Of a DNA stretch of 64,000 nucleotides, positions 1-41,668 are shown one piece after another. Position numbers and translations under genes: made by a program. Below the pieces are notes generated by a model that made no database searches, was not told the DNA's origin, and saw only the letters and a program-made list of their open reading frames with translations. This DNA comes from an uncultured Gammaproteobacteria bacterium (GTDB lineage: Bacteria > Patescibacteriota > Microgenomatia > UBA12405). Position 1 is the first letter of the stretch. Every line of letters starts with the position of its first letter. Where the stretch lies: NCBI GenBank assembly GCA_964448705.1, contig CAYUZS010000002.1:113577-177576 (forward strand). The letters run 5' to 3'.

Positions 1-499
1 GAGTAATTTTGAGACCGGTCCAAGTGCCGGAAAGTGTAGAATACCGATCGTAATTACCGTTTATAAAAGCCAGGGGATCATTAGCACCAAGAAGTGAAGA
101 ATATCTTTCGATATAGCCGCCACGATGACGATAAGTAAAAAAAATCGGCTCTGAACCAATAATCTGTTGATCTGTAAAAGGATTTAACATTAACTGCAAC
201 CAATCATTTTGAGGAAGTATATTGTCAGAATCAATAAAAGCAACAAAGGGAGAGTTGGCTTTTTTGAGACCAATTGCCTTACCGGCTTCGGCTGTTTTTA
301 AAGGATTTTTTAAAATACGAGCATGATATTTTTTGGCAATAAGCAGGGTGCGGTCGATAGAGCCACCGTCGCAAATATAAAGATGGACCTTATTTTTGGG
401 ATAATTTTGTAGGGATATTGATCGGAGACATTTAGTTAAAACTTTTTCTGAATTCAGAGTAGGAATAATAATATCGATGTCAAATGATACCGCCATAAC
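1..499 (-). CDS. Glycosyltransferase family 2, 5'-partial (runs off window start)
   Basis: Minus-strand translation starts MAVSFDIDIIIPTLNSEKVLTKCLRSISLQNYPKNKVHLYICDGGSIDRT and contains FIDSDN (DxD-like). This is a typical GT2 N-terminus. It is absent from the ORF track because no stop falls inside the window. It overlaps the 3' end of the rSAM gene by about 20 nt. Confidence 0.7.
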
Positions 500-2066
500 G
501 ATGTATGATACTAAAAATTCGATAATCGAGCGGCAGTTCAAAAAATTTCAATTTCCAACGGAGAGTAACCAAAAATAGGGCGATGTAATAACCGATGTTA
601 AAAGCAATTTTTCCAAAAAAATTATTTATCCGGTTAGACAACATATCATAGGTGTCCCGATCCATGATGCCAAAAATATATTGGGTCAACATCGCCGTCA
701 ACTGAGCATCATGATGGCTGATCCATTTTTGTTTTAAAGTTTCCTGAAAAGCATCCTCCGGAGACATAAGATAATTGCTCCAACCATTGAGACTTTTAGG
801 ATAATTGAGCCCTAATTTAACCGCCCGCTTGAATAAAGGGGCACCGGGATAAGGTAGGAAAATATAATAGGTATAACGATTACGGTTACATATTTTTAAG
901 AGTTTATCGATTAGAGTTAAAGTCGCTTTATATTCTTCGGCAACAAAACGATTATTTTCCTGAGGATTTTTTGACCAAGGTAAACCAACCAGAAAAGAGT
1001 ATAAAATTTTGATCTTATATTGCTGACATCTTTTAGTGAAAGTAATCAGTTCATCAACATTCATATCTTTAGAAATAAAATCCAAGGCATTTTGAGAACC
1101 GGATTCGGCACCGGTTAGAATCATAGCGCAACCAGTTTTCTGCATTAATTTCCAGGTTTTTTCCTGATAACGGGATAATTGACCGGCACGACCATTAGCG
1201 TTTCCCCATTTTAAATGAAGTTTTCTATCTATTAATCCCTGACAGATTTCAGTGACACGTCGTTCATCAACGAAAAAGTTACTGTCATAAACAGCAATAG
1301 AATCGGCCCGGTAAGTTTTTTTTAAAAATGCCCATTCATCAAGGACTTTAGAAGCGGGAACCGGCTGCCAATGACGTTTATTAACGATTTCTTCAACACA
1401 AAAAGCACAACGATGAGGACAACCGTAACTGGAAATATAAGGAATTGTCCGTTGACCGTATTCGGTATTCTGAACACATTTTTCGACATCGATCAGGTGA
1501 TAAGGCAGTGACGGTAGTTGGCGCAAATCAACCGGAGGTGCATCAGGGTTGGAGAAGATTTTTGATTTTTGTTTAAAGGTGATTCCGGGAATATCTTTTA
1601 AGGATTGACGGCGATAAAGGGTGTTAACCAAGAGGGGGAAAGTTATATCACCCGGCCCACGAACGACTATGTCCACATAATGATTTTTTACCGTTTGTTC
1701 GGGAAGAATTGAAGGATGCCAGCCTCCCCATACTATAGGAATATGAGGATATTTTTTTTTGAAAGCTTTGGCGACTTTTAGACCATCATGAATTTGAAAA
1801 CCTGTCATAGCACTGATGCCGAGACAAACAACGTCTTCACCCTGGTTAAGAATTTCTTCTAAATAGTTTTTTTGAAGATGACGGGCATAGATATTAATTT
1901 TATATTTCTGTTTGTCTAATAATCTGGATATAGCCAGGAGAGCCAGGGGGACACCATGCCAATTTCTTTCATACGGCAACGGCGAGGGAAAATATAAAAG
2001 AACTTTTTTTTTAGATTTTGGAATTGATTGGGAAGTCACGGAGTTTTTGGAGATATTTAAAGGCAT
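480..2066 (-). CDS. B12-binding domain radical SAM protein (class B rSAM)
   Basis: The N-terminal Rossmann-like segment (VVCLGISAMTGFQ...IPIVWGGWHPS) resembles a cobalamin-binding domain. The Cys cluster GCPHRCAFC is canonical Cx3Cx2C. A downstream GAESGSQNALD motif is typical of B12-rSAM enzymes. Confidence 0.8.
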   Translation of the reverse strand: MPLNISKNSVTSQSIPKSKKKVLLYFPSPLPYERNWHGVPLALLAISRLLDKQKYKINIYARHLQKNYLEEILNQGEDVVCLGISAMTGFQIHDGLKVAKAFKKKYPHIPIVWGGWHPSILPEQTVKNHYVDIVVRGPGDITFPLLVNTLYRRQSLKDIPGITFKQKSKIFSNPDAPPVDLRQLPSLPYHLIDVEKCVQNTEYGQRTIPYISSYGCPHRCAFCVEEIVNKRHWQPVPASKVLDEWAFLKKTYRADSIAVYDSNFFVDERRVTEICQGLIDRKLHLKWGNANGRAGQLSRYQEKTWKLMQKTGCAMILTGAESGSQNALDFISKDMNVDELITFTKRCQQYKIKILYSFLVGLPWSKNPQENNRFVAEEYKATLTLIDKLLKICNRNRYTYYIFLPYPGAPLFKRAVKLGLNYPKSLNGWSNYLMSPEDAFQETLKQKWISHHDAQLTAMLTQYIFGIMDRDTYDMLSNRINNFFGKIAFNIGYYIALFLVTLRWKLKFFELPLDYRIFSIIHRYGGII

Positions 2067-3543
2067 AAGTAGTTAAATAACGGATATCGTCTATATTTCT
2101 GATGGAAATGACCTTTCTGAGCAGAAACTTGGGAGTTAAGACTCCATAAAATAATTCCCGAACTAATTTTAATTGAGTTTCTTTTTTAATTGGTGATTTC
2201 ATAACTGGTTGGCGCATGTCAAAATCGTTCCAGTCATGGCTTAACAACCAATTGTTTTTTAGACATTCAGCATAGAGCGGTGTGCCGGGATAAGGAATAA
2301 CAATAGTTGCCTGCATACTGTCGGCTAATACGTCTTTAAATAATTGCCTGGCTTCATTTAAAGTATTTTTGGCATCTGATAACTTTTCCCACGGATATCC
2401 AATCATAATTGTGATATGTGGTTGTAGACCTGCTTTTTTGGCCATAACAAGGGTATTTCTGGCATCCTCCGGTTTGGTATTTTTAACCAGACGATTGAGG
2501 GTGTTTTGATTATTGGACTCCAAACCGTAAAGTATAAAACGAAAACCAGCCCGGCCCATGAGATTGTATTGTTCCTGATTTAAGGCTCCGAAACGCATAT
2601 TACAGCCGATAGTAACTTTTTTATTTAAGCCTTTTTTGATTAATTGATGACAAAGATCGTTAAGCCAGGGACCAATCGGTAAAGTGCCGGCATCATCAAA
2701 AATTTCTCTGACTCCGAGCCTGGACAAATTTTCTATTTCTTTAATGATATGTTTAACGGAAAAATTCCGAAAAGTGTTACCCGGATGAGTGGTCGTCCAG
2801 GAACAAAAAGTACATTTCCCCCACCAACAATCCCGACCGGACATAATATATGCGCCGGGCTTATATTTAAAATTAGTGTTGTTCCAACCGTAAAGCTGCC
2901 ACTTGGTCAGTTTTCTATCGATAATAGGCATTGAATCCAAAAAGTGATGTTTTAAGGCAAATTTGCCGGTATTTAGTATTTTAGAGCTTTGGTTCTTTTG
3001 TGTTTTAGAGCGATAGTAAAAACCAGGTTCGAGCTTTGATTTTTTAGAGAGATGATTGGCTAAATTAATCATCATAAAATCGTAATCTCCGCCGGTGATA
3101 ACATAATCGGCCAAGGAGTTTTCCATTGATTCTTCGGGCATAGCAGTGACATGATCACCCATGAGAGCGACTTTGGATTGGGGTAGATAACGTTTTATGT
3201 CGGCAATAATCTGCCAGTGCTTCTTGATAACCGGAGTTTTGGATTCGATAAAAATTAACTGCGGCTTATTTTTGATTAACCTATCCAACCATTGCTGATA
3301 GGAAATTTTTTCAGCAATGGCGTCATCCCAAAATACCCGATAACCCATTTTTTTTAGGGCAGAAGCACCATAGGCCGGGATAACAGGAAGAATGACATTG
3401 CCGGTGTTAGTCCACTGAAATTGACGATTTTGGGCTAAAAACGGTTGACCTTTAGAGGATATAAGTGGCGGGTAAGAAACCGAGATGGAGAATTTCGGCT
3501 TAGCCGCCGAGATAGCCTTTTTCATTGGCTTTGTGTGGTACAA
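2011..3543 (-). CDS. B12-binding domain radical SAM protein, paralog with variant Cys spacing
   Basis: Same architecture as the neighbouring rSAM gene: B12-like N-domain (KVALMGDHVTAMPE), Cys cluster DCWWGKCTFC (Cx4Cx2C) and a YGLESNNQNTL motif matching GAESGSQNAL of the neighbour. Confidence 0.7.
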   Translation of the reverse strand: MYHTKPMKKAISAAKPKFSISVSYPPLISSKGQPFLAQNRQFQWTNTGNVILPVIPAYGASALKKMGYRVFWDDAIAEKISYQQWLDRLIKNKPQLIFIESKTPVIKKHWQIIADIKRYLPQSKVALMGDHVTAMPEESMENSLADYVITGGDYDFMMINLANHLSKKSKLEPGFYYRSKTQKNQSSKILNTGKFALKHHFLDSMPIIDRKLTKWQLYGWNNTNFKYKPGAYIMSGRDCWWGKCTFCSWTTTHPGNTFRNFSVKHIIKEIENLSRLGVREIFDDAGTLPIGPWLNDLCHQLIKKGLNKKVTIGCNMRFGALNQEQYNLMGRAGFRFILYGLESNNQNTLNRLVKNTKPEDARNTLVMAKKAGLQPHITIMIGYPWEKLSDAKNTLNEARQLFKDVLADSMQATIVIPYPGTPLYAECLKNNWLLSHDWNDFDMRQPVMKSPIKKETQLKLVRELFYGVLTPKFLLRKVISIRNIDDIRYLTTYAFKYLQKLRDFPINSKI

Positions 3544-4447
3544 AATTTAAATTTTTAGATAAAAAACCAGTAATAAACATTATACCGTAGTATAGATGGG
3601 TACAGGGGATAGTAATTACAGCCAGGATAGAAATTGAGAGTTTATTTTTCTTTAACAAGAATGAAATAAAGGTGACAATTAATAATAATAGATATAAAAA
3701 AAGGAAAGGATAAAATTTGGTAAAAGGGAGAGTGAGGATATAAAGAAAAAAGATACTAGGGATAAAATAACCAATTCTTCGGCTAGTTTTGGGATAAAGT
3801 TTGGCAAAATTACCACGATGTTTGGCGTATCTGGTTATTTGTTGAAGGTGGGGAAGAATTACTTTCCGACGGTGATGATAAACAATGACTGACGGATGGT
3901 AATAAATTTTTTTGTGAAGTTGATACACAAGGTCGTGGCAAAGAATGGTATCTTCACCAGGCCAATGATGAGTATTAAAACCTTTTACTTTAACAAAATC
4001 AGATTTACGGACTATAAGATTTACCGAGGGATAGTCATCGACAAATCTGGCCGGTGAGACTAAATTACGATAGGTGCCGGCTCCCCCGCTGCCAAGGTAG
4101 CTAGACCATACTAAACCGGATGCTTGTTGAAGAACACTATCATGCGGAGGAGTTAGACAAGGACCGCAAACAGCGGCCAGAGAAGGTTTAAAAATATGAC
4201 GGGCATTTTTAAGCCAATCCGGTGAAGGATATGAATCATCATCGAGAAAAGCAAGATATTTTCCTTTGGCTTTTTTGGCACCAAGATTTCTTTTGATGGC
4301 CGGACTAACCGGTCCGGAAATTTTGTCAGTGATAACTAAAATTTCAAATGAAGTAAACGATTGTCGGGAAAGGTGTTTGATAGTTTCTCTTAGATAGGGA
4401 GTCTCGGTTCGTACAGGAATTATGATTGAAAAGAGTGGTTTTTTCAT
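3500..4447 (-). CDS. Glycosyltransferase family 2 with C-terminal transmembrane region
   Basis: FSIIIPVRTETPYLRETIKHLSRQSFTSFEILVITD and AFLDDDS are GT2 motifs. The C-terminal ~90 aa are hydrophobic. Confidence 0.75.
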   Translation of the reverse strand: MKKPLFSIIIPVRTETPYLRETIKHLSRQSFTSFEILVITDKISGPVSPAIKRNLGAKKAKGKYLAFLDDDSYPSPDWLKNARHIFKPSLAAVCGPCLTPPHDSVLQQASGLVWSSYLGSGGAGTYRNLVSPARFVDDYPSVNLIVRKSDFVKVKGFNTHHWPGEDTILCHDLVYQLHKKIYYHPSVIVYHHRRKVILPHLQQITRYAKHRGNFAKLYPKTSRRIGYFIPSIFFLYILTLPFTKFYPFLFLYLLLLIVTFISFLLKKNKLSISILAVITIPCTHLYYGIMFITGFLSKNLNFVPHKANEKGYLGG

Positions 4448-5274
4448 TAACCTAAGTTAATACGCATTTTTAAATCCTGATCATATTTCCATTGGCGTTT
4501 ATTTTTATCGTCGTAATAATGGAGAATACGCAGTCGATAAAAAATTGCCAGGGCATCGACAAGAGATTTGAAAATTGTTTTGATGCCGGTGGCGTGAGTG
4601 AGACTTGAAAAAACATATTTCAATTTAACAGGAGCTTCGTAAATTCTGGTGAAACCAAGATAATTAGCGACAGAAAGAATCTCCAAATCGAAGGCATAAT
4701 TTTTAACCAACAACCGCGGCAAAACTTTAACTAAAACTTTTCTTTTAAAAATTTTTAAGCCGGCCTGGGTATCTTTGACACGAATTCCCAATAAAAAACG
4801 GGAAATGATTTGGGCTCCAAAACTAATGATTCTCCGGTCGAGAGGATAATTTACAACCGAGGCAGGGTGGCGTTTTGAAGCGACGATTATATCAGCATCA
4901 TACCATTCCAAATGTTCAATTAAGAGTGAAATACCGTTAGGGTCTATTTCCATACCGGAATCGATAAAAGAAATATAGTCACCTTTGGTATGGGCCATGC
5001 CATATCTGACGGCATAACCTTTACCATGATTATGTTGATAGCCAATTACTTTTAAATTTTGATTTCTAATTGATTTGGCAATTTTAAATGATTGATCGAC
5101 TTTTATACCGTCAACTACAGCAATAACTTCATATTGATAACGAATCCGATCCAGGCTGTAGAGAATAGTGGAAAGATCATCGGCAATAGTTTTTTCCTGT
5201 TTATAAACTGGAACGATGACCGATATAAAATGGGAATTATTTACCATAAGATAAAGCCTGTTCATAGGCAGCAA
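4447..5274 (-). CDS. Glycosyltransferase family 2
   Basis: ISVIVPVYKQEKTIADDLSTILYSL...VIAVVDG has a GT2 N-terminal signature. Confidence 0.65.
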   Translation of the reverse strand: MLPMNRLYLMVNNSHFISVIVPVYKQEKTIADDLSTILYSLDRIRYQYEVIAVVDGIKVDQSFKIAKSIRNQNLKVIGYQHNHGKGYAVRYGMAHTKGDYISFIDSGMEIDPNGISLLIEHLEWYDADIIVASKRHPASVVNYPLDRRIISFGAQIISRFLLGIRVKDTQAGLKIFKRKVLVKVLPRLLVKNYAFDLEILSVANYLGFTRIYEAPVKLKYVFSSLTHATGIKTIFKSLVDALAIFYRLRILHYYDDKNKRQWKYDQDLKMRINLG

Positions 5275-6331
5275 GCGTTTGAATGGCAGTATATTTCCAA
5301 TTAAATATTTTAGATCGCTGTAAACCCTTGAAGGAATATTGCTTTTGAAGTTGAGAATCGGTCCATACTTTTTTCAGAGATTTTTTCAGAGCATTATGGT
5401 GGTAAGGATTAAAAAACTCACCATTGTAGTCCATAATTTCAGATAAAGAAGTTTCCTGACTATAAACAACCGGAGTGCCGCAACTCATGGCTTCGACAAC
5501 AGTTAAACCAAATCCTTCAGCATAAGACGGCTGACAATAAATAGTGGCCAAATTGTACAACAGCGGTAGGTCTTCATCCGGAACAAAGCCAAGTAATTTA
5601 AGAGCATGGGAATGCCGATACTTTGAGGCTTTTGATTGAAGCCAATGAATATCCCTAGTCCACGGATGAGAAGGTACTTTTTTAACAGCAGATGAACCGG
5701 CGATAACCAAAGGATATTTTAATTTTAAACATGCTTTAACCAAAGTGCGGATATTTTTATTCCAATTGATATCACCAACAAAAAGGACAAATTTGTCCGG
5801 TAAATCATATTTTGTTTTTATCTTTTTTAGAAGTTGATTGTCGGTAACCGGTTTAAAAACAGGTAAGGCGGCTTCGTGGGTGACATAAATTTTATCGGCC
5901 GGGTAATTTAAAATATCAGAGATAATATATTTGGAATAATGGGAAACAGTAATAATTAAAGTTGAACGGCGGGCAAGAAAGCGCTGGATCAACCATTTGA
6001 TTTCCCCTTTTATGCCGACGGGGAAATGTGATTTGAATTGTCGTGGAATTAAATCGTGGATGGTGATTATCGATGGAATTTTTTGTTGTACGGGTAAAGT
6101 TAATGAAAAAGGATCAAAATAAGGATAGTGGATCAACTGATATGAGCTAATGTCTGTTTTGGGAGTGCTGATGAGGTCTATTTTAAAATGGCGGTACTTA
6201 GGGTTTATTTTTATTTCTTTTTGAAGGTAATCGACTAAATTTCGGGTGTAATAGCCGACTCCCCTGATGGAGTTGCCGTCATTTAGAGGACTGACATCAA
6301 TGGCGACTCTGACGGTTTTACTGGAAATCAT
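5237..6331 (-). CDS. Glycosyltransferase family 4 (GT-B, group 1)
   Basis: C-terminal EGFGLTVVEAMSCGTPVV motif of retaining GT4 enzymes. Confidence 0.8.
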   Translation of the reverse strand: MISSKTVRVAIDVSPLNDGNSIRGVGYYTRNLVDYLQKEIKINPKYRHFKIDLISTPKTDISSYQLIHYPYFDPFSLTLPVQQKIPSIITIHDLIPRQFKSHFPVGIKGEIKWLIQRFLARRSTLIITVSHYSKYIISDILNYPADKIYVTHEAALPVFKPVTDNQLLKKIKTKYDLPDKFVLFVGDINWNKNIRTLVKACLKLKYPLVIAGSSAVKKVPSHPWTRDIHWLQSKASKYRHSHALKLLGFVPDEDLPLLYNLATIYCQPSYAEGFGLTVVEAMSCGTPVVYSQETSLSEIMDYNGEFFNPYHHNALKKSLKKVWTDSQLQKQYSFKGLQRSKIFNWKYTAIQTLAAYEQALSYGK

Positions 6332-7106
6332 TTAAGTTGCCTTTTAAAACCGTTAACTCATAATGTTTGACATACACTGAGGGAAAACGTAAGGCAGAAT
6401 AAAAAGCGTATACAAAACCAGGGAAACCGTCAACAAATCCCAAATGACGAAAATAAATTTGAAAGAAACGATAAAACGGTTTAAAGAAAAAATAACTAAT
6501 AAATGATAGTTTTTGATGTTTATCGGCTAAAAGTTTGGCTTCAATGGAAGTGTAGCGGTTGGCTCTGGCCTGATACCTGAAAAAAGTAGGGTCGGAAAAA
6601 TGCTGAAGGTTAGAGGAAAGATGGCCGACAGATCCGGTAATCTCGGCCTGCTCGTGAACATCAAGACAAGGAAGTTTACCGTAGCCGTTTTTGTACAACC
6701 GAATAGTCGGATCAGGGTAGGCACCGCCTTTTTTAAGAAAACGACCGAGAAAATAATTGGTTCTATTGATCCAATAACCATTATGTTGAGGATTATTGAT
6801 AGTCGAGACAATCTCTTTTTTAAGCTCCGGAGTAACCACTTCATCAGGATCGAGCTGAAGAATCCATTCACCATGACAGGCATCAATAGCCGTTTGTTTA
6901 TTAAGATGAAATAGCGGATGATTAGGACCGGAAATAATTTTAGCCTGAGGATATTTTTTAATAATAGAGACGGTATTATCTAAAGATTGGGCGTCGTAAA
7001 CAACTATTTCATCAGCAATATCTTTGATGGCATCGAGGCAGCGTTTAATAAATTCCTGTTCATTAAAAGAAGCCAAAGCGATGGAGAGTTTAATTTTATT
7101 CTTCAT
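6318..7106 (-). CDS. Glycosyltransferase family 2
   Basis: LSIALASFNEQEFIKRCLDAIKDIADEIVVYDAQSLDNT. It shares the ADEI(I/V)V subtype motif with the GT2 genes at 24360-25142 and 26059-27015. Confidence 0.75.
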   Translation of the reverse strand: MKNKIKLSIALASFNEQEFIKRCLDAIKDIADEIVVYDAQSLDNTVSIIKKYPQAKIISGPNHPLFHLNKQTAIDACHGEWILQLDPDEVVTPELKKEIVSTINNPQHNGYWINRTNYFLGRFLKKGGAYPDPTIRLYKNGYGKLPCLDVHEQAEITGSVGHLSSNLQHFSDPTFFRYQARANRYTSIEAKLLADKHQKLSFISYFFFKPFYRFFQIYFRHLGFVDGFPGFVYAFYSALRFPSVYVKHYELTVLKGNLNDFQ

Positions 7107-7122
7107 AAGATTTTATTTTATG

Positions 7123-8721
7123 CTAGTTTGTGTATATTTTAAAACTTTGACCGGTTATTTGATAGTCAGCGGAGTCGATCACTAAAGAATTTTGAGGGAT
7201 ATTTTCGGGAATACTAAAAAAGATGTTATCAATTTTAGAAATGGTTGAAAAACCAAATTTATCGGGAGGAGTTAACTGACTTTGAACCTGAAAATCTTTT
7301 GGTGGATATTGAGAAAAGAATAAATAAAGAATATATGGCTGATCATATTTATCGGTAATATAGACTTGTTCATAATTAGCTTTTTGTGATTCAACATATG
7401 GGACAAGGGAATCAAATCCGGTGTTCCAGGCAAACGAATATTTTTGGGGGGATCGGATAAAATAAGAGTCAAAATAATAGCCGAAAGAATAGAAGTATAA
7501 AAAGGATAAGATAATGAGAAGAATTTTTTGAGATATTCCTTTAGAGGAAAAGAAACTTAGTAAGCCATAAACACCAGAGGCGATAAAAACAGAGATGGGA
7601 ACAGACATCGGCAATGCCCGGAGAGCCGAGGGCGCCTGGAATGTTAAAGATGAGGCGAGAGGACCGATTAAAAGCCAAAGGAGCATTAATTTACCTAAGG
7701 CATTAGTCTCCCGACGGCTGATTAAAAATATTAGGCCGATGATTAAAAGAGGTATTTCAAACAAATATGCCTGCCCCATGTCCGGAGATTTTGACCTTGG
7801 AACTTCGTCCCCATTTAAGAATAAAAAATTAAAATCAAAATGAGATGTATATTTTTGAGCCCAGGATAAACCATATAGAATTCTTTTATTGTGAATCAAG
7901 CGATAAACAATATCGACACTACCGTGTTGGTTTAATAGTTCTTCGGCTCGAGCAGTGGGCCCGTAATCAGCGGTTAAACCGACTCCGTTGAATCGGGCGG
8001 TTCCACCATTATTCAGAAAAGAAACTATTACCGGAATAGTAAGAACTACAGCAATAAGAAAAGAGAAAATTGAGCGGGGTAAATTTTTAAGAAATAAATT
8101 TTTATTAAAAATAATAATAATGAAAACCAGAACGGGGATAACAATTCTGGCGGAATGATAGACATAAAGGGAAGCAACAAACGGCAGGGGAAATAGAAAA
8201 AGATAAATGTTTTTTTGACGAATAAAATAAGAATACAGCCAATAAACACCCAAAATTAATAAAAACAAGGCAATGGAAGTTTCCCAAGCACCTCTGGAAA
8301 AATGAATATGCCATGGGTTAAGAGTTAAAACCAGAGAACTTAATAAAGATAAGGATTCAGATTTGGTTAACAATAAAACCAGCCGATAAAGAATAAAAAT
8401 AGTTAAAACTGAAAGAATCAAATTCGGCAGACGAATGGCTAAAACATTTAAGCCTAAAAATTTAATAAACGGTAAAGCCAAATAAACATAACCACCGGGT
8501 TTATAGTCGCCGAAGGATTCAAAATGAAGAGGCCAACTGTGTCCATGTTCGTCTTTACCGGTTTCCAAAAGTGAATAGGCATTGTAGCCCAAAGCGGCCT
8601 CATCGGGATTTAAAGCCGGTAGAGTGTTAATTTTGTAGCCTCTAATCAGAAAAGCCAAAAATAGAATAATAACCAGAATAATTTTAGGGTGTTTCATAAG
8701 CATAAAATGAAGAATGGCCAT
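7123..8721 (-). CDS. GT-C membrane glycosyltransferase, GT39/PMT/ArnT-like (paralog 1); likely start near 8697
   Basis: Polytopic membrane protein. The first-loop motif is NPDEAALGYNAYSLLETGKDEHGHSWPLHFESFGDYKPGGYVYLALPF. The DE acidic motif lies in a loop after TM1, as in PMT/ArnT GT-C enzymes. A soluble C-terminal domain carries QPYILYLFFSQYPPKDF. Confidence 0.7.
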   Translation of the reverse strand: MAILHFMLMKHPKIILVIILFLAFLIRGYKINTLPALNPDEAALGYNAYSLLETGKDEHGHSWPLHFESFGDYKPGGYVYLALPFIKFLGLNVLAIRLPNLILSVLTIFILYRLVLLLTKSESLSLLSSLVLTLNPWHIHFSRGAWETSIALFLLILGVYWLYSYFIRQKNIYLFLFPLPFVASLYVYHSARIVIPVLVFIIIIFNKNLFLKNLPRSIFSFLIAVVLTIPVIVSFLNNGGTARFNGVGLTADYGPTARAEELLNQHGSVDIVYRLIHNKRILYGLSWAQKYTSHFDFNFLFLNGDEVPRSKSPDMGQAYLFEIPLLIIGLIFLISRRETNALGKLMLLWLLIGPLASSLTFQAPSALRALPMSVPISVFIASGVYGLLSFFSSKGISQKILLIILSFLYFYSFGYYFDSYFIRSPQKYSFAWNTGFDSLVPYVESQKANYEQVYITDKYDQPYILYLFFSQYPPKDFQVQSQLTPPDKFGFSTISKIDNIFFSIPENIPQNSLVIDSADYQITGQSFKIYTN

Positions 8722-10264
8722 TAATAGGACTTAAAGGGGTTAATAATTTTAAATCAATGTTTTGCCGAAGAGCATCGTCGTAAGTAAGGATCTGAAGAAC
8801 TCCGGGGACTGTTTTTAAATAAGAAAAATCCGGGGTTTTAAAAATAAAGTTATCAACTTGGGCAACTTTACCGGTATCCAAACCGGTTGAAATTAAATTG
8901 GCCTGTTTTTGGTACGAAGCCGGATCATGTCGACTGATAAACAAATAATAAATATAAGGTTGGCCGTAAAAATCTGAAAAATAAACGGTCTTGTTTTGGC
9001 TGTGTTGAAGAGCGTAGGACATGGCCGACTGATAGCCATACAACCAATGATCGGGTTTAACTTTTACCATGTGAGAGTAATAAAGATCGGTGTAATAGAT
9101 AAAACTTAAAAGATAAGCCAGAAAAATTGTTAAATAGACTATTTTTTTTGAAAAGCGATTAATTATGAATTCAATACCGCAAGCAGCAAAATAAATTATG
9201 GCAATGCTAAGAGATAGTGTCCGAACCGGTTGAATAATATCCAAAGTTAAAGCTCCCGGCAAAGGCGAAACCAGAAGCCATATTAGAAAAAAACGAGATA
9301 GAAGAGTTACAGGTTTGGAAAGAGTAAAAAATAAACCGATAACAAAAAATAAAACAGTGGGGTACAAAAATGCGCCAATATAAGGAGCCGACTGACGGCC
9401 GATCTGCCAATCCCCTTCAAAAGCTAAAAATCGAGGTGAAAAATAATTGAAATATCTAAGAAAAAAATTTCTAGCAAAGAAAACGACTTCTGAATGATAA
9501 AGACGATAATTAAGGCTGCCTGATTCTTTTAAAATTTCGGCCACTTCAGTTTCAGGTTGATGATATGACCACAGACCAAAGACCTGAAGACGGTTGGAAT
9601 CCGAGCCAAAGAAAAGACCATAGGCGATAGGCAGAGCAAGTAAGAAAAGCGGCAGTATGAACCTGATCAGCAACTGTTTGAAATTTATTTGTTTATAAAA
9701 AGTAAACAAAAGAGCAAGAATCAGTAAAGGAGACATAATTTTTCCACCCTGATAGGTATATAAAGTGGCAGCAAAAACCAAAGAAGAGAAAAATAATTTT
9801 TTAGAAAGAAAAAGATAAGCAGCGGTTAACAACTCAAATAGAAGGACATTCGTTTCCCAACCACCGCGTGAATAATGAATATTCCAAGGGTTGAAAGCGG
9901 TTAAAGCGGCAGCAATTAAAGCCAGACGTTTATGCTGCGGGAAAAATTTAACAATTAATAAATAAAATATAAAAGGTAGAAGAGAACCTAAGATTACAGA
10001 AGGCAATCTGACGGCTAAAGGAGTTGGACCAAGAATGGCAACGAAGGGAGCAGTTAAATAGATATATAATCCGGGTTTGTAATCACCAAAAGACTTGAAA
10101 ATATAGGGCAAAAAACGGCCGTATTCATCACGTCCGGTTTTTAATATGGAATAAGCATTATAGCCAATTGAAGCTTCGTCCCAAAGAAGCGGAGGATAAT
10201 TAATATTAATTATCCTGATAAAGAATCCAAAAATGAGAATAAGTAGAAGTAGTTTTTTATTCAT
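8684..10264 (-). CDS. GT-C membrane glycosyltransferase, GT39/PMT-like (paralog 2)
   Basis: WDEASIGYNAYSILKTGRDEYGRFLPYIFKSFGDYKPGLYIYLTAPF. The C-terminal domain carries YGQPYIYYLFISRHDPASYQ. Confidence 0.7.
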   Translation of the reverse strand: MNKKLLLLILIFGFFIRIININYPPLLWDEASIGYNAYSILKTGRDEYGRFLPYIFKSFGDYKPGLYIYLTAPFVAILGPTPLAVRLPSVILGSLLPFIFYLLIVKFFPQHKRLALIAAALTAFNPWNIHYSRGGWETNVLLFELLTAAYLFLSKKLFFSSLVFAATLYTYQGGKIMSPLLILALLFTFYKQINFKQLLIRFILPLFLLALPIAYGLFFGSDSNRLQVFGLWSYHQPETEVAEILKESGSLNYRLYHSEVVFFARNFFLRYFNYFSPRFLAFEGDWQIGRQSAPYIGAFLYPTVLFFVIGLFFTLSKPVTLLSRFFLIWLLVSPLPGALTLDIIQPVRTLSLSIAIIYFAACGIEFIINRFSKKIVYLTIFLAYLLSFIYYTDLYYSHMVKVKPDHWLYGYQSAMSYALQHSQNKTVYFSDFYGQPYIYYLFISRHDPASYQKQANLISTGLDTGKVAQVDNFIFKTPDFSYLKTVPGVLQILTYDDALRQNIDLKLLTPLSPINGHSSFYAYETP

Positions 10265-11882
10265 GAATTAAAATATCAAAGGCCGGAGTTCCATCCAAAA
10301 AATTAATTGTTTTTATTAGTTTAAAACTTTGAGAAGGATAAGTACCAGGACTGGTGATTAAGAGACTATTCGGTTTGAATGAAGAGTCTTTTATTTCCCA
10401 GTCATTAATAAATACAAATTTATCGAAACCATCGATCCAATACCAATCGGCATGATTATTCCAGTTGAGATTAGGATCTGATTGATACTTGACTGGATCC
10501 CAGGGCCAATAAAAAAGAATAAATTCGTGCGGTTCGCCATATTTTTTAGTGAAATATATATGCTGATATGATGAATAGTTTTCTTTTAAATAGTCGACTG
10601 CCTGCTTGTAGCCATATTGCCAGGAAGAAGAATATTGAACATTATAATTGAGATAGTTTTGCCAATAAGAAATAAACTGAATAACGGAAAATATGATAAC
10701 CACAGGATAGAGGAAAAATAACTTTTTGGTATTTAAAAGAGACAAGCCATAGACTATTGAAAGAAAGTAAAAAGGAAGAGCAATAGTAGCTCTGATTGAG
10801 GGAAAATCACCGACAGTGAGAGCAGCTGGCAGCAAGCAAATTAAAAAACTGATTAATATTTGAAGATTTAGGTGTTTATTTTTAATTCCCAGAATTAATT
10901 TCAATAAACCAAGATAGAAAAAGGGTAAAAAGACAAAATAGATTAAACCAGTTTGAGGTGGGTTAAATTGATAATTTTGGGAACCAGTAAAAAATATCGG
11001 AAGCGGATTGATTAATGAAAGATAGTTGACAAAAACGGTCTGAGTAAAATAGACAACTTTATTATTAAGAGCAACATTCAAAAAATAAGGACCTGTAAAG
11101 AGACGCCTTTTTTCGTTAATTAAATTTATGGAATTCGGATTTATTATGCCAACCCAGCGATTTCTGGCGGCAGACTCCGGTGAAAACAAGTTAAATAAGT
11201 TAGGCAGGGCTAATATTAGAAAAATAGAAAGTGAAAGGAGAAGAGAAAGGCGATTGGTTTTAAAAATAGATTTGAATTTTGCCCAGTTCATGAAAACCAA
11301 AATCGGCAGCAAAAGCGGAACAATAATTCTGGTGTTATGATAGGAGTAGAGTGAAAGAGCAAACAGAAAAGAAGAAAGAATTAACCAACGCGTTTTTTTA
11401 AGTCCATGGTAAAAAAATATCAATCCGGCCAGTAATAAGGTTTGAGAAAAGTCCGATTGGAAAACAGCTCTGGAAGGAAAAAGATTCCAGGGAGTAATGG
11501 CGGCAATAAACATTGCAATCAGAGCTAGATAATTATTTTTGATAAATATTCTGGTGAAGAAAAAAACTAAGACGACAAAAATAGTGCTGAAAATGGCTGA
11601 AGGCAGCCGGATGCTGAGAGCATTAAGGCCTAAAAATTTTACAAAGGGAATAGTAAGATAAAGATTAAAAGTGGTCGGATAATCACCATAAGCCCGAAAA
11701 TTAAAAATAGGCCAACTGACTCCCCATTGATCTTTACCGGTTTGGAGAAGGGAATAAGCATTGTAACCATGGGAAATTTCATCCCAATTTAAGGAAGAAG
11801 GCAGAGTATCCAGATGCCAGAATCGGAAAAAAACAGCAATCAAAAAAATAAAAATAAAAATTAGTTTATGAATGTTTTTCAC
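10257..11882 (-). CDS. GT-C membrane glycosyltransferase, GT39/PMT-like (paralog 3)
   Basis: WDEISHGYNAYSLLQTGKDQWGVSWPIFNFRAYGDYPTTFNLYLTIPF. The C-terminal domain carries YGEPHEFILFYWPWDPVKYQ. Confidence 0.7.
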   Translation of the reverse strand: MKNIHKLIFIFIFLIAVFFRFWHLDTLPSSLNWDEISHGYNAYSLLQTGKDQWGVSWPIFNFRAYGDYPTTFNLYLTIPFVKFLGLNALSIRLPSAIFSTIFVVLVFFFTRIFIKNNYLALIAMFIAAITPWNLFPSRAVFQSDFSQTLLLAGLIFFYHGLKKTRWLILSSFLFALSLYSYHNTRIIVPLLLPILVFMNWAKFKSIFKTNRLSLLLSLSIFLILALPNLFNLFSPESAARNRWVGIINPNSINLINEKRRLFTGPYFLNVALNNKVVYFTQTVFVNYLSLINPLPIFFTGSQNYQFNPPQTGLIYFVFLPFFYLGLLKLILGIKNKHLNLQILISFLICLLPAALTVGDFPSIRATIALPFYFLSIVYGLSLLNTKKLFFLYPVVIIFSVIQFISYWQNYLNYNVQYSSSWQYGYKQAVDYLKENYSSYQHIYFTKKYGEPHEFILFYWPWDPVKYQSDPNLNWNNHADWYWIDGFDKFVFINDWEIKDSSFKPNSLLITSPGTYPSQSFKLIKTINFLDGTPAFDILIHE

Positions 11883-13479
11883 GGATTACTTTGATTATAA
11901 ACAGGGAAATGGCTAAGAGACTAAGTGAATTAGCAATAGTCCGAATAGGGGTGTTGCGAAGATGGAGTTCGAAAGCATAGTTTCCGGTGGGAAGATTCAG
12001 TTGAATTAAACCAAGCTGTGGTTCTATTTTAATATCCTGGAGAGAATTGTTTATTTTTAACTCCCAATTCGGGAAATAAACCATAGGCAGATTAATGACG
12101 GCATAGTCGGATATAACATCCAAACTACCTTTAGCCTGATGACTATTTTTGGAAAAAGAGAGGTTGCTTACCTCTCCTGATTCAATCGAGGGAACGCCGG
12201 AAGAAAATTGGTCGGGAAAACCGATGGAGTAGTTTGGCCAATAGTCTTTTAAACCGGCACCGCTTTGTCTAATAATTTCTGAGGTAGTTAATTTCTGAGA
12301 ATCAGATAAATTTTGATACCAAATATCTTCTTTAAAATAATTAAAATTTAATAAATATGCAGCGGCAATAATGATAAAAGTAAGAAAAACGGAAAAACGT
12401 TTTAAGGGAGCAATTAAAACAAAAGCACCTGAAATTAGTGAGAAACAAAAAACAGCCAGACCGAGAAAACGCCAGGGAAATTGATAATAGGCCATAAACG
12501 GCAATAGCTGCCAAATAAAAGTTGATTTATTGTGGGTTAAAAATAGAGCTAAAAGACCAATGAAAAATCCACTTAGAATCAGCCAACGATGTGATAACTT
12601 TTTATTAAAAAATGTATAGATGACAACTACTAAAGGCAGAATCCACTGAAGATAACCGATCTGAAAGGACATGTCATCCTGAGGACCCCATAGAGATGCA
12701 CCGTAGCCCCAAAAGCGAGAAAGAAACAACTCGGAAATAGTAGTGAAATGATTAATGTAGCTGAAATAACCCTGAGTCATGGTATCGACAGTAACTAAAT
12801 TTTTTTCCAATAAAGCCGGCAAGAGGAAAAAGGAAGACATAAGAAAAGCCAGAACGGAATTAAGGATTAAATTTTTATTGATGTTTTTGGTTAGAAGAGA
12901 AAAAATTAAAACTAAAGGAACAGCGTATAAAGCAGTCAAATTGTGGCTTAAAAGAAGAAAAAGGAGAGAAACGATATAGAGATTGGATTTTTTGGAAAGC
13001 AGAGCAAATAAAACTAAGGGAATAAAACTGAGCGCCCAATATTCGCCTAACGCTCCCCTGACAAATCCATCAACAGCCTGATATGGAGCCAGAGTATACA
13101 AAACGCTGCTGACTAAACCACCAGCCGGACCAAATAAGAAGTTACCTAAAAGGTAAGTAGAAACGGAACGAATTAAATTTGGAATTATAAAAACAGCTTT
13201 AATACTGTTGATATAATCCAGACCGGTTAGATGAAAAGCTTCGGCAACCAGGTACGGAAGAGGTGAATAATAATTGTAGAGCGGATAACCATAACCAAAT
13301 CCCCCATCAGCAATAAAACGACAGGGAATTTGACCATCATGAAGACAGCTATCAAGCTGCTGCAATCTAAAAATCTGAATATCATCCTGCATGGAAAAAT
13401 AGCCCGGACGAAAGAGTCTTAAACTAATTGAAAAACCGATAAACAGAGAAATCAAAAGGAATATTTTACTTTTGTTCAT
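11866..13479 (-). CDS. Large polytopic membrane protein, family B (paralog of 30072-31859); putative glycosylation-associated
   Basis: N-terminal MQDDIQIFRLQQLDSCLHDGQIPCRFIADGGFGYGYPLYNYYSPLPYLVAEAF aligns with NMHDDMQLIRQLEMEKCFNDGQIPCRWTPDLGYGYGYPLFNFYPPLPYLVGQIF of the other copy. The C-terminal ...LHLRNTPIRTIANSL... matches the other copy as well. It may belong to the PTPS-related membrane-protein family, but that is an unverified recollection. Confidence 0.5.
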   Translation of the reverse strand: MNKSKIFLLISLFIGFSISLRLFRPGYFSMQDDIQIFRLQQLDSCLHDGQIPCRFIADGGFGYGYPLYNYYSPLPYLVAEAFHLTGLDYINSIKAVFIIPNLIRSVSTYLLGNFLFGPAGGLVSSVLYTLAPYQAVDGFVRGALGEYWALSFIPLVLFALLSKKSNLYIVSLLFLLLSHNLTALYAVPLVLIFSLLTKNINKNLILNSVLAFLMSSFFLLPALLEKNLVTVDTMTQGYFSYINHFTTISELFLSRFWGYGASLWGPQDDMSFQIGYLQWILPLVVVIYTFFNKKLSHRWLILSGFFIGLLALFLTHNKSTFIWQLLPFMAYYQFPWRFLGLAVFCFSLISGAFVLIAPLKRFSVFLTFIIIAAAYLLNFNYFKEDIWYQNLSDSQKLTTSEIIRQSGAGLKDYWPNYSIGFPDQFSSGVPSIESGEVSNLSFSKNSHQAKGSLDVISDYAVINLPMVYFPNWELKINNSLQDIKIEPQLGLIQLNLPTGNYAFELHLRNTPIRTIANSLSLLAISLFIIKVIREKHS

Positions 13480-15085
13480 GTGGAGTGATGATTAAAAATT
13501 GAGGCGAGGTGAGATATCTTTTTTCAGTTTGAGAGATGATATCAAACGATGATTTATTGGAAAGAGACTGATATTCATCGCCGGTGATGACATAAACCTG
13601 AGAAGCGGTTGAAGGAATTTTATCCATATTAAGATGGCCAAAATAATAATTATTGTTTAAAGCGGTGCCATCAAAGAAATCGTTTTGGAGATGAGACAAT
13701 TGGTCGGAAAGAGATTTAGAGGGTGAAGAGTAATAGGGAGTATAGAAAAGGAAGAAAGGCATAAATGGTTCGAAACTATCGGAGAAATAAATATCATTTC
13801 CCGGATATTTGGAAGTTAAAAGGATTGCATCTTTCATGCCGGTGTGCCATGTAGCGGCAGAAGACTGAGGATAGTGAATAGTATAGTAATGGGCAAAATT
13901 TAAAAAAAGCAAAAAATATAGAGGCAGTAAAAACTTTTTTTTATTTAAACCAAGATAAGAAAAGTAGATCAACGAGGGAAGCATTAAGATTAACCGGGTG
14001 GCATGGGGAGAAAGGGAATCACGGGTTAGAGAATAGGGAATGGGAGCCAGAATCAACAGCCAAAAAAATAAAGAACCGATTTTGGTTGGTTTTTTAAAAT
14101 AAATAAATATTCCCAAGGGGATAACAAATAAGTCGAGCAAATATAATAATCCATGCCCGCCAAAACCATGACGAAGATTGTCGTCGCCTTTGAGAAACAA
14201 AAATGAGGTAGAGAAAGAAGAAACATAATTTTCGACAAATTTTTGAGCAACTAACTGATACTTGTTGTGTAATATTTTGGAAATAAAGGATGTTTTTACA
14301 CCAACTTCACCGTAATGATTTAAAAGGACATCTTCATATCGAAGATGGTCGGTTACCTGCTCCCGATGGGGTTGAGTAAAAATACCAATATAGGAAAATC
14401 TGAAACCACTTTGACCGGAAAAGGTATCAATGGCTAAGGGAGTTAATAAAAGTAAACCTAAAATTATTCCGGAAAGTAAATGGAGAGGAAGCATTTTTTT
14501 AATATCAGAACGCCAGATAATGAGGATTAACAATAGAAGTATGGGTAAGAATAAATTGGCGGTGCTGTAGAAATAAGGAGCTTGAACGAAAGCGATGACA
14601 GCCAACAATAACCAAGATAATTTATGATTTAAAAGATATCTTTTCCAAAAATAGATTCCGGCCAGTAGAAACATAATCATGCCCGATACTTCAAATCCTG
14701 TTCGACTGTAATGTATAGCCCACGGTGAGATGGCTAATAAAAAGGATGCCAGAGGGGAATTGGTGATCAAATATATTAAAATTACTGAAAGAACACCAAA
14801 AACTGCTGAAGGCAGACGAACAGAAAGTTCCGGACTGAAGCCAATTTTTTGGAAAAAGGCAATACTATATATAAGGGAAGGAGTTCTCCAATCGGAGAAA
14901 GAATGAAAATGAGAAGGAAATTGGTTGCCAAAATAGTCTGATTGAGAGTGATTGAAAACCAGGGCTTGATAGCCGGCATCAACTTCATCTGAAAACAAAG
15001 CCGGAGGAAAATTACTTAAATTAAGGAAACGACTGAAGACAGCTATAAGCAAAATTAAGAATAATATCGATATTTTAGTTTTCAT
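13466..15085 (-). CDS. GT-C membrane glycosyltransferase, GT39/PMT-like (paralog 4, divergent)
   Basis: SDEVDAGYQALVFNHSQSDYFGNQFPSHFHSFSDWRTPSLIYSIAFF keeps the DE..GY...F.SF.D....Y pattern. It has multiple TM segments and a conserved C-terminal domain. Confidence 0.65.
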   Translation of the reverse strand: MKTKISILFLILLIAVFSRFLNLSNFPPALFSDEVDAGYQALVFNHSQSDYFGNQFPSHFHSFSDWRTPSLIYSIAFFQKIGFSPELSVRLPSAVFGVLSVILIYLITNSPLASFLLAISPWAIHYSRTGFEVSGMIMFLLAGIYFWKRYLLNHKLSWLLLAVIAFVQAPYFYSTANLFLPILLLLILIIWRSDIKKMLPLHLLSGIILGLLLLTPLAIDTFSGQSGFRFSYIGIFTQPHREQVTDHLRYEDVLLNHYGEVGVKTSFISKILHNKYQLVAQKFVENYVSSFSTSFLFLKGDDNLRHGFGGHGLLYLLDLFVIPLGIFIYFKKPTKIGSLFFWLLILAPIPYSLTRDSLSPHATRLILMLPSLIYFSYLGLNKKKFLLPLYFLLFLNFAHYYTIHYPQSSAATWHTGMKDAILLTSKYPGNDIYFSDSFEPFMPFFLFYTPYYSSPSKSLSDQLSHLQNDFFDGTALNNNYYFGHLNMDKIPSTASQVYVITGDEYQSLSNKSSFDIISQTEKRYLTSPQFLIITPHEQK

Positions 15086-15109
15086 TTTCTCCTTCTTTAT
15101 TTTATACTA

Positions 15110-18153: not shown

Positions 18154-18154
18154 T

Positions 18155-31859: not shown

Positions 31860-31886
31860 AGTTTTGTAATTAGTGAAATCAAAACA

Positions 31887-41608: not shown

Positions 41609-41668
41609 AAAATGTATAAATTTTAATAATTCAGTATAGCAAATCGAAGATAGGATGACAGCCAAAGC

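Follow-up and report, generated by a model that had tools for sequence, protein, structure and literature searches.

Two adjacent genes in the glycan locus of a Candidatus Shapirobacteria (CPR/Patescibacteria) bacterium, here named rSAM1 and rSAM2, may well encode two distinct class-B-type enzymes that tailor a sugar of a membrane-bound glycan intermediate by radical chemistry, as judged from domain architecture, motif conservation, predicted fold and conserved synteny. The operon in which they lie would build a cell-envelope glycan. rSAM2 is the conserved core enzyme of this module, being present in all 80 of the related loci compared; rSAM1 is an accessory or optional insertion carried by a minority of genomes, with orthologues in 12 of the 80. 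The features that bear on this proposal are listed here by their position in the window, that is, the whole 64-kb stretch of DNA that was analysed.

1..496, minus strand: 5′ part of a GT2 gene (in full 334 aa, with a C-terminal TM segment) that runs off the window
480..2066, minus strand: rSAM1, 528 aa, class-B radical SAM protein whose B12-binding domain is canonical; an accessory member of the module
1398..1421, minus strand: canonical Cx3Cx2C motif of rSAM1, C216-P-H-R-C220-A-F-C223, read from the DNA
2011..3525, minus strand: rSAM2, 504 aa, class-B-like radical SAM protein; core gene of the conserved module
2803..2829, minus strand: Cx4Cx2C [4Fe-4S]/SAM cluster motif of rSAM2, C233-W-W-G-K-C238-T-F-C241, read from the DNA
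3403..3432, minus strand: rSAM2 loop Q32-N-R-Q-F-Q-W-T-N-T41, invariant in alignment A1 (n = 57)
3500..4447, minus strand: GT2 glycosyltransferase, 315 aa, with C-terminal TM segments (Pfam; hydropathy segments 225–292)
4447..5274, minus strand: GT2, ~266–275 aa, with weak matches to the polyprenyl-phosphate sugar synthases PpgS, ArnC, AglJ and PgfS; in 59–60 of 80 loci
5237..6331, minus strand: GT4 glycosyltransferase, 364 aa (Pfam); in 48–50 of 80 loci
6318..7106, minus strand: GT2 glycosyltransferase, 262 aa (Pfam); in 48–49 of 80 loci
7123..15085, minus strand: five consecutive GT-C-type (PMT_2/PTPS_related-like) integral membrane proteins, 526–541 aa
28646–30100: Wzx-like flippase, further glycan context in the window
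41669–42700: LCP ligase, further glycan context in the window

The genes of the operon are all co-directional, with ends that overlap by 17–56 nt, and their order on one strand (GT-C ×N, GT2, GT4, GT2, GT2 with TM segments, rSAM2, GT2 with TM segments) is conserved across 80 species-level genomes, where it was found both by targeted tblastn and by unbiased clustering. The first-pass annotation had described the pair as flanked by GT2 genes, and this is the case. The GT2 at 3500..4447 lies directly upstream of rSAM2, overlapping its start by 26 nt, and its family occurs in 67–70 of the 80 loci at a median gap of −5 nt to rSAM2; the partial gene at 1..496 shares 17 nt with the end of rSAM1, and in most related genomes it directly follows rSAM2 (family in 52–61 of 80 loci, median gap +14 nt). 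Hydropathy places C-terminal TM segments in both of these GT2s and none in rSAM1 or rSAM2. The GT-C family is found in 45 of the 80 loci, mostly in several copies, and at least 10 GT-C-like membrane proteins matching PMT_2/PTPS_related are encoded in the window; those of 7123..15085 presumably use polyprenyl-phosphate sugar donors. The pair had also been placed at the edge of the locus, a description that does not hold: a contig identical to the window across 13,524 nt extends for 7,990 nt beyond the first position of the window and there carries more glycosyltransferases, one SPASM radical SAM gene and a third class-B radical SAM gene. In the source organism up to four radical SAM genes thus accompany the GT2–radical SAM–GT2 core within one glycan locus. 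Homologues of both proteins also occur on a Nitrospirae contig (rSAM2 45% identical, with CWYHKCSFC; rSAM1 47% identical), where their neighbours are an NTP-transferase, NDP-sugar epimerases/dehydratases and glycosyltransferases. Neither genes for cobalamin transport or salvage nor a riboswitch occur in the 64-kb window, and CPR bacteria as a rule do not make B12; both points count against the main proposal. Neither the window ORFs that were scanned with Pfam nor the 8-kb extension yielded any of the hopanoid genes shc, hpnH, hpnI and hpnK.

Both radical SAM reading frames are real, and Pfam finds the same two domains in each: Radical_SAM (PF04055, gathering cut-off 29.5 bits) at 30.7 bits in rSAM1 and 49.3 in rSAM2, and B12-binding (PF02310, cut-off 32.1 bits) above the cut-off in rSAM1 (49.1) and below it in rSAM2 (28.1). 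Each protein has the three cysteines of the CXnCX2C pattern that defines the radical SAM superfamily. While the rSAM2 ORF was called as 2011..3543 on the minus strand, its real start is the ATG at 3525, which yields a 504-aa protein identical to the database protein P0001 and consisting of an N-terminal Rossmann/B12-like domain, a radical SAM TIM-barrel core and a C-terminal helical domain. For rSAM1 the start is less sure: translation may instead begin at a GTG at 2039, and the model shows residues 1–14 as disordered. Foldseek matched the AF2 models (pLDDT 92.2 for rSAM1; pLDDT 85.9 and pTM 0.88 for rSAM2) to many solved radical SAM enzymes with probabilities up to 1.00, the nearest being AprD4 for rSAM2 (also MgmA, TsrM and OxsB) and TsrM/OxsB for rSAM1 (also MgmA, AprD4 and TokK). 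Both models superpose full-length on the class I enzymes TsrM, OxsB, TokK and MgmA, and equally well on AprD4, which does not bind cobalamin (PMC12931638). The two proteins had been called tandem paralogues; with only 21% identity between them (BLASTP E 3e-15; hhalign probability 99.6%), they are superfamily relatives belonging to different class-B subfamilies rather than products of a recent tandem duplication. The G(A/L)ES(G/N)xQNxL motif is common to both as had been stated, but it is generic to this radical SAM clade and recurs in the MgmA, AprD4 and OxsB alignments.

The HMM search against class-B subfamilies that the first-pass annotation had proposed returned HpnJ (TIGR03471) as the best family for both proteins, yet no curated cut-off was reached by either. 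HpnJ scored 131.1 bits with rSAM2 and 120.5 with rSAM1, roughly one fourth of the required 577.6 bits; BchE (TIGR02026) scored 97.5 and 92.9 bits against 481.35, the AprD4 family (NF033070) 40.3 and 44.5 against 500, and TIGR04295 (B12_rSAM_oligo) 56.7 with rSAM2 and 38.9 with rSAM1 against 400. The model for the RiPP enzyme ApyD matched rSAM1 at 106 bits, far below its family cut-off. Thus the chemistry of these families is not transferable to rSAM1 or rSAM2, and according to a 2026 review methylating and non-methylating class-B enzymes are indistinguishable by sequence or structure (PMC12931638).

Re-reading the DNA bears out both cysteine motifs, GCPHRCAFC in the first protein and DCWWGKCTFC in the second. 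In rSAM1 the codons at 1421..1398 (TGT CCT CAT CGT TGT GCT TTT TGT) give CPHRCAFC, in which C216, P217, C220, F222 and C223 are invariant in alignment A2. In rSAM2 those at 2832..2803 (GAT TGT TGG TGG GGG AAA TGT ACT TTT TGT) give D-C-W-W-G-K-C-T-F-C. That the Cx4Cx2C spacing of rSAM2 might be an assembly, frame or sequencing artefact, or the mark of a decaying, non-functional gene, is extremely improbable. In the wider family a few full-length proteins (P0256, P0259, P0267, P0269 and P0276) have indeed lost all three cysteines, but the 504-aa frame is intact, CWWG[KR]C.FC is kept in 120 of the 120 closest homologues (64–100% identity), the identical protein is found on contigs from two sequencing runs (SRR8925805 and SRR8925774), about 160 columns are invariant in alignment A1 (n = 57) and the protein is modelled confidently. 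The conservation refutes the artefact or decay reading, and the homologues and the two runs together exclude a frame or sequencing error. Nor is the spacing the oddity it was taken for: it occurs in OxsB, GenD1/Sis14, a queuine lyase and Megacluster-4-11 of RadicalSAM.org, and in view of such precedents it carries little weight by itself. In a profile alignment CIWGKCSFC of the queuine lyase aligns residue by residue with CWWGKCTFC of rSAM2, and in the OxsB structure a Cx4Cx2C loop is seen to bind the cluster and SAM (PMC9204698).

Inteins in relatives of rSAM2 interrupt the motif exactly at Cys1 or Cys3. Inteins usually target functionally essential sites, and their placement is thus in line with a need for these cysteines. 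Across the family, the loop between Cys1 and Cys2 varies from X3 to X18, a useful natural series on how much variation a radical SAM cluster loop tolerates. A second conserved element, the Q32–T41 loop, lies at the strand 1/helix 1 junction of the Rossmann domain, where pLDDT falls below 50 at residues 30–39. It has no counterpart in rSAM1, to which the hhalign match begins only at residue 54, and is a candidate cofactor- or substrate-binding loop.

We suggest that a [4Fe-4S] cluster on C233/C238/C241 of rSAM2, or C216/C220/C223 of rSAM1, would cleave SAM reductively, and that the resulting 5′-deoxyadenosyl radical would attack a sugar of the glycan intermediate at an unactivated carbon and remove a hydrogen, the substrate radical then being resolved. 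Because rSAM2 sits between two membrane-anchored GT2s, its most likely substrate is what the upstream GT2 makes, held at the membrane through polyprenyl phosphate, and the downstream GT2 would extend the rSAM2 product. The Nitrospirae context suggests that the substrate of the two enzymes could equally be a nucleotide sugar. Radical SAM remodelling of a lipid-linked sugar after a glycosyltransferase step has precedents in HpnI/HpnK/HpnJ and the calditol synthase Cds (PMC13459092). The latter (Saci_1489), a radical SAM enzyme that makes a carbocycle of the hexose head group of a lipid once the sugar has been transferred, is a working analogy; it is archaeal and acts on GDGT lipids. HpnJ, like the role proposed for rSAM2, follows a GT2 step (HpnI) and has a sugar on a membrane lipid as its substrate. 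This hopanoid-associated class-B protein has been proposed, from a knockout, to convert BHT-glucosamine into a cyclitol ether by contracting its glucosamine ring; hopanoid genes, as noted above, are absent from the window.

As to how the substrate radical is resolved, rSAM1 is most likely a methylcobalamin-dependent C-methyltransferase. Its B12-binding domain exceeds the Pfam cut-off, and among PDB sequences the methylase TokK matches it best (E 2e-11, from the B12 domain through the Cys motif). D261-S262-N263 of rSAM1 aligns with D-A-N, the ‘GGE’ motif of TokK (for the role of this motif see PMC9204698). TokK differs in its length (681 aa, with an extra C-terminal domain), in its carbapenam substrate and in a structural identity of only ~17%. 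For rSAM2 we put transfer of a methyl group from cobalamin narrowly ahead, sugar ring contraction or dehydration being almost as likely. The invariant R231 (Cys1−2) and W243 (Cys3+2) correspond to R204 and W215 of TokK, which contact cobalamin or stack between cofactors (PMC9204698). The aminoglycoside sugar C-methyltransferases GenD1/GenK/Sis14, and Fom3, are cobalamin-dependent and methylate unactivated sugar carbons, as the first-pass annotation had envisaged here, their sole link to rSAM2 being the Cx4Cx2C spacing of GenD1 (reported for GenD1 and, as worded there, GenK and Sis14; PMC4340712); GenD1/GenK/Sis14 act on soluble pseudo-oligosaccharides in actinomycete antibiotic pathways, not in envelope glycan operons. 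Against methylation by rSAM2, its nearest characterised relatives are non-methylating, namely HpnJ in the HMM search and AprD4 in the fold and profile comparisons; its B12-binding score is sub-threshold; and in a profile alignment it has no counterpart of rSAM1 F90, the aromatic that an ungapped extension of the TokK alignment puts at the lower-axial position. The earlier suggestion of sugar modification is supported by the carbohydrate context (GT2s across 80 genomes, and the Nitrospirae contig), while its more specific form, C-methylation, is not established; HpnJ and AprD4 both act on carbohydrate, and neither is a methylase.

It is possible, though we lean against it, that rSAM2 is a sugar remodeller that does not methylate, either contracting a hexose to a cyclitol in the manner of HpnJ and Cds or dehydrating a 1,2-diol to a deoxy sugar in the manner of AprD4, with its Rossmann domain serving as a structural part or an electron sink rather than a methyl carrier. 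The HpnJ match spans residues 74–499 against model positions 51–465 of 472, C-terminal domain included, and the GT-then-radical-SAM adjacency resembles hpnI/hpnJ. AprD4 (PDB 6FD2), a radical SAM 1,2-diol dehydratase acting on a sugar substrate, the aminoglycoside paromamine, is both the best solved structure (Foldseek E 2e-20, TM 0.66/0.73) and the best PDB profile match (E 1e-11), and shares the two-domain layout with an N-terminal Rossmann-like domain; it differs in its sequence (16% identity), in the motif CPYPCRFYC (Cx3Cx3C) that it shows in the alignment and in being cobalamin-free. CDYSRCTFC of OxsB (PDB 5UL2-4), which carries out a cobalamin-dependent ring contraction in oxetanocin A biosynthesis, aligns position by position with CWWGKCTFC of rSAM2, and OxsB has the class I B12-radical SAM fold; its similarity to rSAM2 is weak (E 2e-4, 23 bits), however, and it is a 744-aa protein that has a helix bundle and an additional N-terminal domain, acting on a nucleotide in a natural-product pathway. 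A non-methylating rSAM2 would also fit its sub-threshold B12-binding score and the invariant polar residues E94, K96 and T97, which lie in the segment aligned around the probable lower-axial F90 of rSAM1; hydrophilic lower faces are reported in TsrM and OxsB, neither of which is a radical methylase. Yet the scores are far under their cut-offs (HpnJ 131 against 577.6, AprD4 40 against 500), neither an AprD3-type reductase nor an HpnK-type deacetylase is conserved beside rSAM2 in the 80 related loci, R231 and W243 match cobalamin-contacting residues of a methylase, and a sugar C-methylase, GenD1, has the same Cx4Cx2C spacing.

We regard it as unlikely that the enzymes act on something other than carbohydrate, whether the lipid or polyprenyl that carries the glycan or a peptide or protein that the PMT-like GT-C enzymes glycosylate, as the lipid- or protein-methylating class-B enzymes HpnP/R, Gmm, MgmA and PoyC do. 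In single-sequence searches of the PDB rSAM2 matches best MgmA (E 1e-9), which C-methylates a protein glutamine, rSAM1 has its 106-bit match to ApyD, and a TPR protein is conserved downstream in 25 of the 80 loci. PMT-type GT-C enzymes classically O-glycosylate proteins, which also favours such a target. In the 80 related loci, however, neither a small ORF for a precursor peptide nor a gene for lipid synthesis is conserved in the module; its tightest and most conserved neighbours, on both sides, are GT2s, the Nitrospirae context is one of nucleotide-sugar metabolism, and the matches to protein- and lipid-modifying families all fall far below their cut-offs.

rSAM1 and rSAM2 are thus uncharacterised representatives of a known enzyme class, and the Cx4Cx2C motif of rSAM2 is real, conserved and precedented. 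Almost nothing of CPR/Patescibacteria envelope chemistry has been characterised experimentally, and the GT2–radical SAM–GT2 core, conserved in at least 80 species-level genomes, together with the up to four radical SAM genes in the glycan locus of this organism, predicts C-methyl, deoxy or carbocyclic sugars beyond ordinary glycan pathways. The triad is a concrete unit that could be tested by heterologous reconstitution, and it would tie envelope synthesis to the supply of Fe-S, SAM and possibly cobamide in organisms of minimal metabolism. A bolder and less probable reading is that rSAM2 performs a CPR-wide radical C–H functionalisation (C-methylation, carbocycle-forming ring contraction or deoxygenation) of a sugar linked to polyprenyl phosphate, at a stage between the reactions of the two membrane GT2s; if so, this would be the first radical SAM step in the assembly of a bacterial envelope glycan. 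Should cobalamin indeed be needed, these episymbionts, which make no B12, would rely for building their envelope on cobamide taken from their hosts or the surrounding community.

Two radical SAM genes, rSAM2 (504 aa) and rSAM1 (528 aa), lie near the start of the window in a run of four genes, given here in transcription order.

3500-4447, minus strand, GT2 glycosyltransferase upstream of rSAM2
2011-3525, minus strand, rSAM2
480-2066, minus strand, rSAM1
1-496, minus strand, 5' part of a GT2 glycosyltransferase downstream of rSAM1

Because neighbouring genes overlap (by 26, 56 and 17 nt for the successive pairs, from ORF calls and DNA reading), the four make up a single operon with translational coupling. 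Mechanical ORF calling starts rSAM2 at TTG 3543; the identical protein in the database, P0001 (504 aa), starts at ATG 3525. For rSAM1 the start at 2066 is less secure: most homologues are ~12 residues shorter, residues 1-14 are disordered in the predicted model, and translation could instead begin at GTG 2039.

A scan of GTDB species representatives found 145 relatives, and 80 of their loci were retained. Gene order was established both by targeted tblastn and by unbiased clustering of all ORFs, and the methods agree.

Conserved one-strand gene order among the 80 loci (neighbour counts are lower bounds; many contigs are short)
First, GT-C paralogs (PMT_2/PTPS_related-like integral membrane proteins): 45 loci, often multicopy
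Second, GT2 of ~269 aa: 48 loci
Third, GT4 of ~361 aa: 50 loci
Fourth, GT2 of ~268 aa: 59 loci
Directly before rSAM2, GT2 of ~323 aa: 70 loci, median gap -5 nt
rSAM2: 80 loci
After rSAM2, GT2 of ~338 aa: 61 loci, median gap +14 nt

The GT2 genes that the first-pass annotation placed on both sides thus recur around rSAM2 in most related loci. Both adjoining GT2s have C-terminal transmembrane segments, and none were found in rSAM1 or rSAM2. An rSAM1 orthologue (at least 60% identity) occurs in only 12 of the 80 loci, and in six of the 34 with a full downstream flank, positioned between rSAM2 and the downstream GT2 and at times alongside an FkbM-type methyltransferase; rSAM2 therefore belongs to the core of this gene set, and rSAM1 is an accessory gene inserted into it. 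The stretch between rSAM2 and rSAM1 may be a variable tailoring island: some Microgenomates have the FkbM-type methyltransferase (Methyltransf_21) between the two genes (L003:11421-12191), and in loci L020, L021 and L023 they are separated by a gap of ~660-690 nt.

Named homologues come from Candidatus Shapirobacteria, Microgenomates and other Patescibacteria (CPR). Many contigs bearing the typical CPR operon (L010, L013, L017, L027 and others) are recorded as ‘uncultured Gammaproteobacteria bacterium’, ‘Candidatus Methanoperedens’ or ‘Methanosarcinales archaeon’; these labels are probably placeholders or mis-binned MAGs, and are therefore not evidence of wider taxonomic spread. Beyond the CPR, homologues of both rSAM2 (45% identical, CWYHKCSFC) and rSAM1 (47% identical) occur on a Nitrospirae contig, surrounded by GT2s, a GT2-GT4 fusion, an NTP-transferase and two NDP-sugar epimerases/dehydratases, a neighbourhood that is independent evidence linking both families with sugar metabolism. 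The context of a Verrucomicrobia rSAM1 homologue is less informative.

Contrary to the earlier proposal, the pair does not mark the edge of the glycan locus. Contig L001, which matches the window exactly over 13,524 nt, extends 7,990 nt past window position 1, and there (L001:13525-21515) carries the remainder of the GT2, a GT4, a GT1-type gene, a TPR gene, an NAD-dependent sugar epimerase/dehydratase, an oppositely oriented class-I methyltransferase, a SPASM/twitch radical SAM gene (343 aa) and a third class-B radical SAM gene (500 aa; Sden_1168, HpnJ and BchE each ~180 bits). One glycan locus holds four radical SAM genes, counting rSAM1, rSAM2, the SPASM gene and the third class-B gene. In the opposite direction the glycan region reaches ~37.6 kb, with many GT2/GT4 genes, at least 10 GT-C-like membrane proteins matching PMT_2, PMT or PTPS_related, and several ORFs of comparable size without a Pfam match.

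7123-21553, 27012-28667, 30072-33377, 35473-36906 and 49497-51221, GT-C-like paralogs (~480-600 aa) in unusually high number
7123-15085, five GT-C-like genes head to tail
28646-30100, minus strand, Wzx-like flippase (Polysacc_synt_3)
41669-42700, minus strand, LCP ligase (LytR_cpsA_psr), after the glycan region
58445-59251, plus strand, sortase

The flippase, LCP ligase and sortase are consistent with a Gram-positive-type wall bearing a polyprenyl-linked glycopolymer. Sizeable ORFs inside or beside the glycan region gave no Pfam match (E <=0.001): 15110-16492(+), 18155-19952(+), 10257-11882(-), 27012-28667(-), 34155-35486(-) and 41129-41665(-). An Rfam scan of the whole window (1-64000; GC 35-40%) returned no family at gathering score, and tRNA, rRNA and riboswitches were undetected.

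rSAM1 and rSAM2 are only 21% identical over 345 residues, with homology spanning the Rossmann and radical SAM domains in profile-profile comparison (99.6% probability), and therefore represent different subfamilies of one superfamily. The motif that the earlier description gave them in common, G-x-E-S-x-x-Q-N-x-L, is generic to this radical SAM clade, and alignments place it in MgmA, AprD4 and OxsB as well. Pfam matched Radical_SAM and B12-binding in both proteins, yet of the B12-binding domain and radical SAM core first read in each, the B12 match is above the cut-off of 32.1 bits in rSAM1 (49.1 bits) and below it in rSAM2 (28.1 bits). Neither protein reached a curated NCBIfam cut-off; the best model was HpnJ (131 bits for rSAM2 and 120 for rSAM1, versus a cut-off of 577.6), followed in order by BchE, PhpK, ladderane, ApyD and BzaD. 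AlphaFold2 models were confident (pLDDT 85.9 for rSAM2, 92.2 for rSAM1). Foldseek against the PDB ranked AprD4 top for rSAM2 (TM 0.66/0.73), then MgmA, TsrM, OxsB, CysS and TokK, and for rSAM1 ranked TsrM, OxsB, MgmA, AprD4 and TokK in that order. From these matches the predicted folds are class I B12-rSAM-like, a likeness in sequence and fold that cannot tell cobalamin binding or reaction type. According to a 2026 review (PMC12931638), no distinguishing features set the non-methylating members apart from methylases, and AprD4 and ArsL have Rossmann-like domains but do not bind cobalamin.

Direct reading of the DNA confirmed both cysteine motifs, the canonical C-P-H-R-C-A-F-C of rSAM1 (1421-1398, minus strand) and the D-C-W-W-G-K-C-T-F-C of rSAM2 (2832-2803, minus strand). 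The Cx4Cx2C spacing of the latter is genuine: CWWG[KR]C.FC or a one-residue variant occurs in all 120 of the closest rSAM2 homologues (64-100% identity) and Cx3Cx2C in none, and assemblies of two different sequencing runs both yield contigs that encode the same protein. These results rule out a sequencing or frame error. The spacing also has precedents and, alone, is uninformative on chemistry. Cobalamin-dependent OxsB has it, with crystal structures showing cluster and SAM binding (PMC9204698); it is reported for GenD1 and, in that paper's wording, GenK and Sis14 (PMC4340712), and for RadicalSAM.org Megacluster-4-11 (PMC9477430). In the rSAM2-family profile, CDYSRCTFC of OxsB and CIWGKCSFC of queuine lyase align position for position with CWWGKCTFC.

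The spacer between Cys1 and Cys2 varies among the best 150 rSAM2-family representatives (50% clustering): 61 have X3, 38 have X4, seven have X7 and a handful have X9-X18. Closer relatives tend to have expanded loops and those at ~30% identity have canonical spacing, so the loop is an insertion hotspot in the rSAM2 clade. The representative search also revealed inteins inside the Fe-S cysteine motif of some relatives, at the third cysteine in P0241, P0244, P0246 and P0247 (CWWGKCTF|C...N|CSWTT, with LAGLIDADG-like blocks; P0247 is a mini-intein) and at the first in P0243, whose host loop is Cx18Cx2C. The window's rSAM2 has no intein. Five full-length family members (P0256, P0259, P0267, P0269 and P0276; ~470-510 aa) have lost all three cluster cysteines and may be catalytically dead paralogs.

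Architecture, motif conservation, fold and synteny are established for the pair; what follows on substrate, cofactor and chemistry is inference. The three cysteines of each enzyme would bind a [4Fe-4S] cluster, at which SAM would be cleaved to a 5'-deoxyadenosyl radical that takes hydrogen from an unactivated sugar carbon. Methyl transfer from methylcobalamin is a plausible but tentative next step for rSAM2, in cofactor as in chemistry, and a somewhat more plausible one for rSAM1, whose B12 domain is canonical, with F90 at the lower-axial position by ungapped extension of the TokK alignment and D261-S262-N263 aligning with D-A-N of the TokK ‘GGE’ motif. In rSAM2, the invariant R231 (Cys1-2) and W243 (Cys3+2) align with two TokK residues, the cobalamin-contacting R204 and W215, stacked between cobalamin and cluster, and would favour a cobalamin site; against one would speak the missing counterpart of F90 in the profile alignment, where the corresponding segment has invariant polar E94, K96 and T97. 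Strand 1 and helix 1 of the rSAM2 Rossmann domain are joined by an invariant 10-residue loop of low model confidence (QNRQFQWTNT, residues 32-41) that is missing from rSAM1. Ring contraction or dehydration instead of methylation is a slightly less plausible alternative for rSAM2. A non-carbohydrate substrate is improbable. The carbohydrate context is well supported; of the sugar modification first proposed, that context stands, and GenK/Fom3-like C-methylation specifically found neither support nor contradiction.

The most likely substrate of rSAM2 would be a polyprenyl-phosphate-linked glycan intermediate in the membrane, which the upstream GT2 would make and the downstream GT2 would extend, since rSAM2 is fixed between membrane-anchored GT2s in a locus rich in GT-C enzymes that also encodes a flippase and an LCP ligase. 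The step would resemble those of HpnI/HpnK/HpnJ and of calditol synthase, in which a lipid-linked sugar is remodelled by a radical SAM enzyme once glycosyl transfer has taken place (PMC13459092). rSAM1 and rSAM2 are uncharacterised radical SAM enzymes of the class-B-like group, and the conserved CPR operon for envelope glycan in which they lie provides, with its GT2-rSAM2-GT2 triad, a clear experimental handle.
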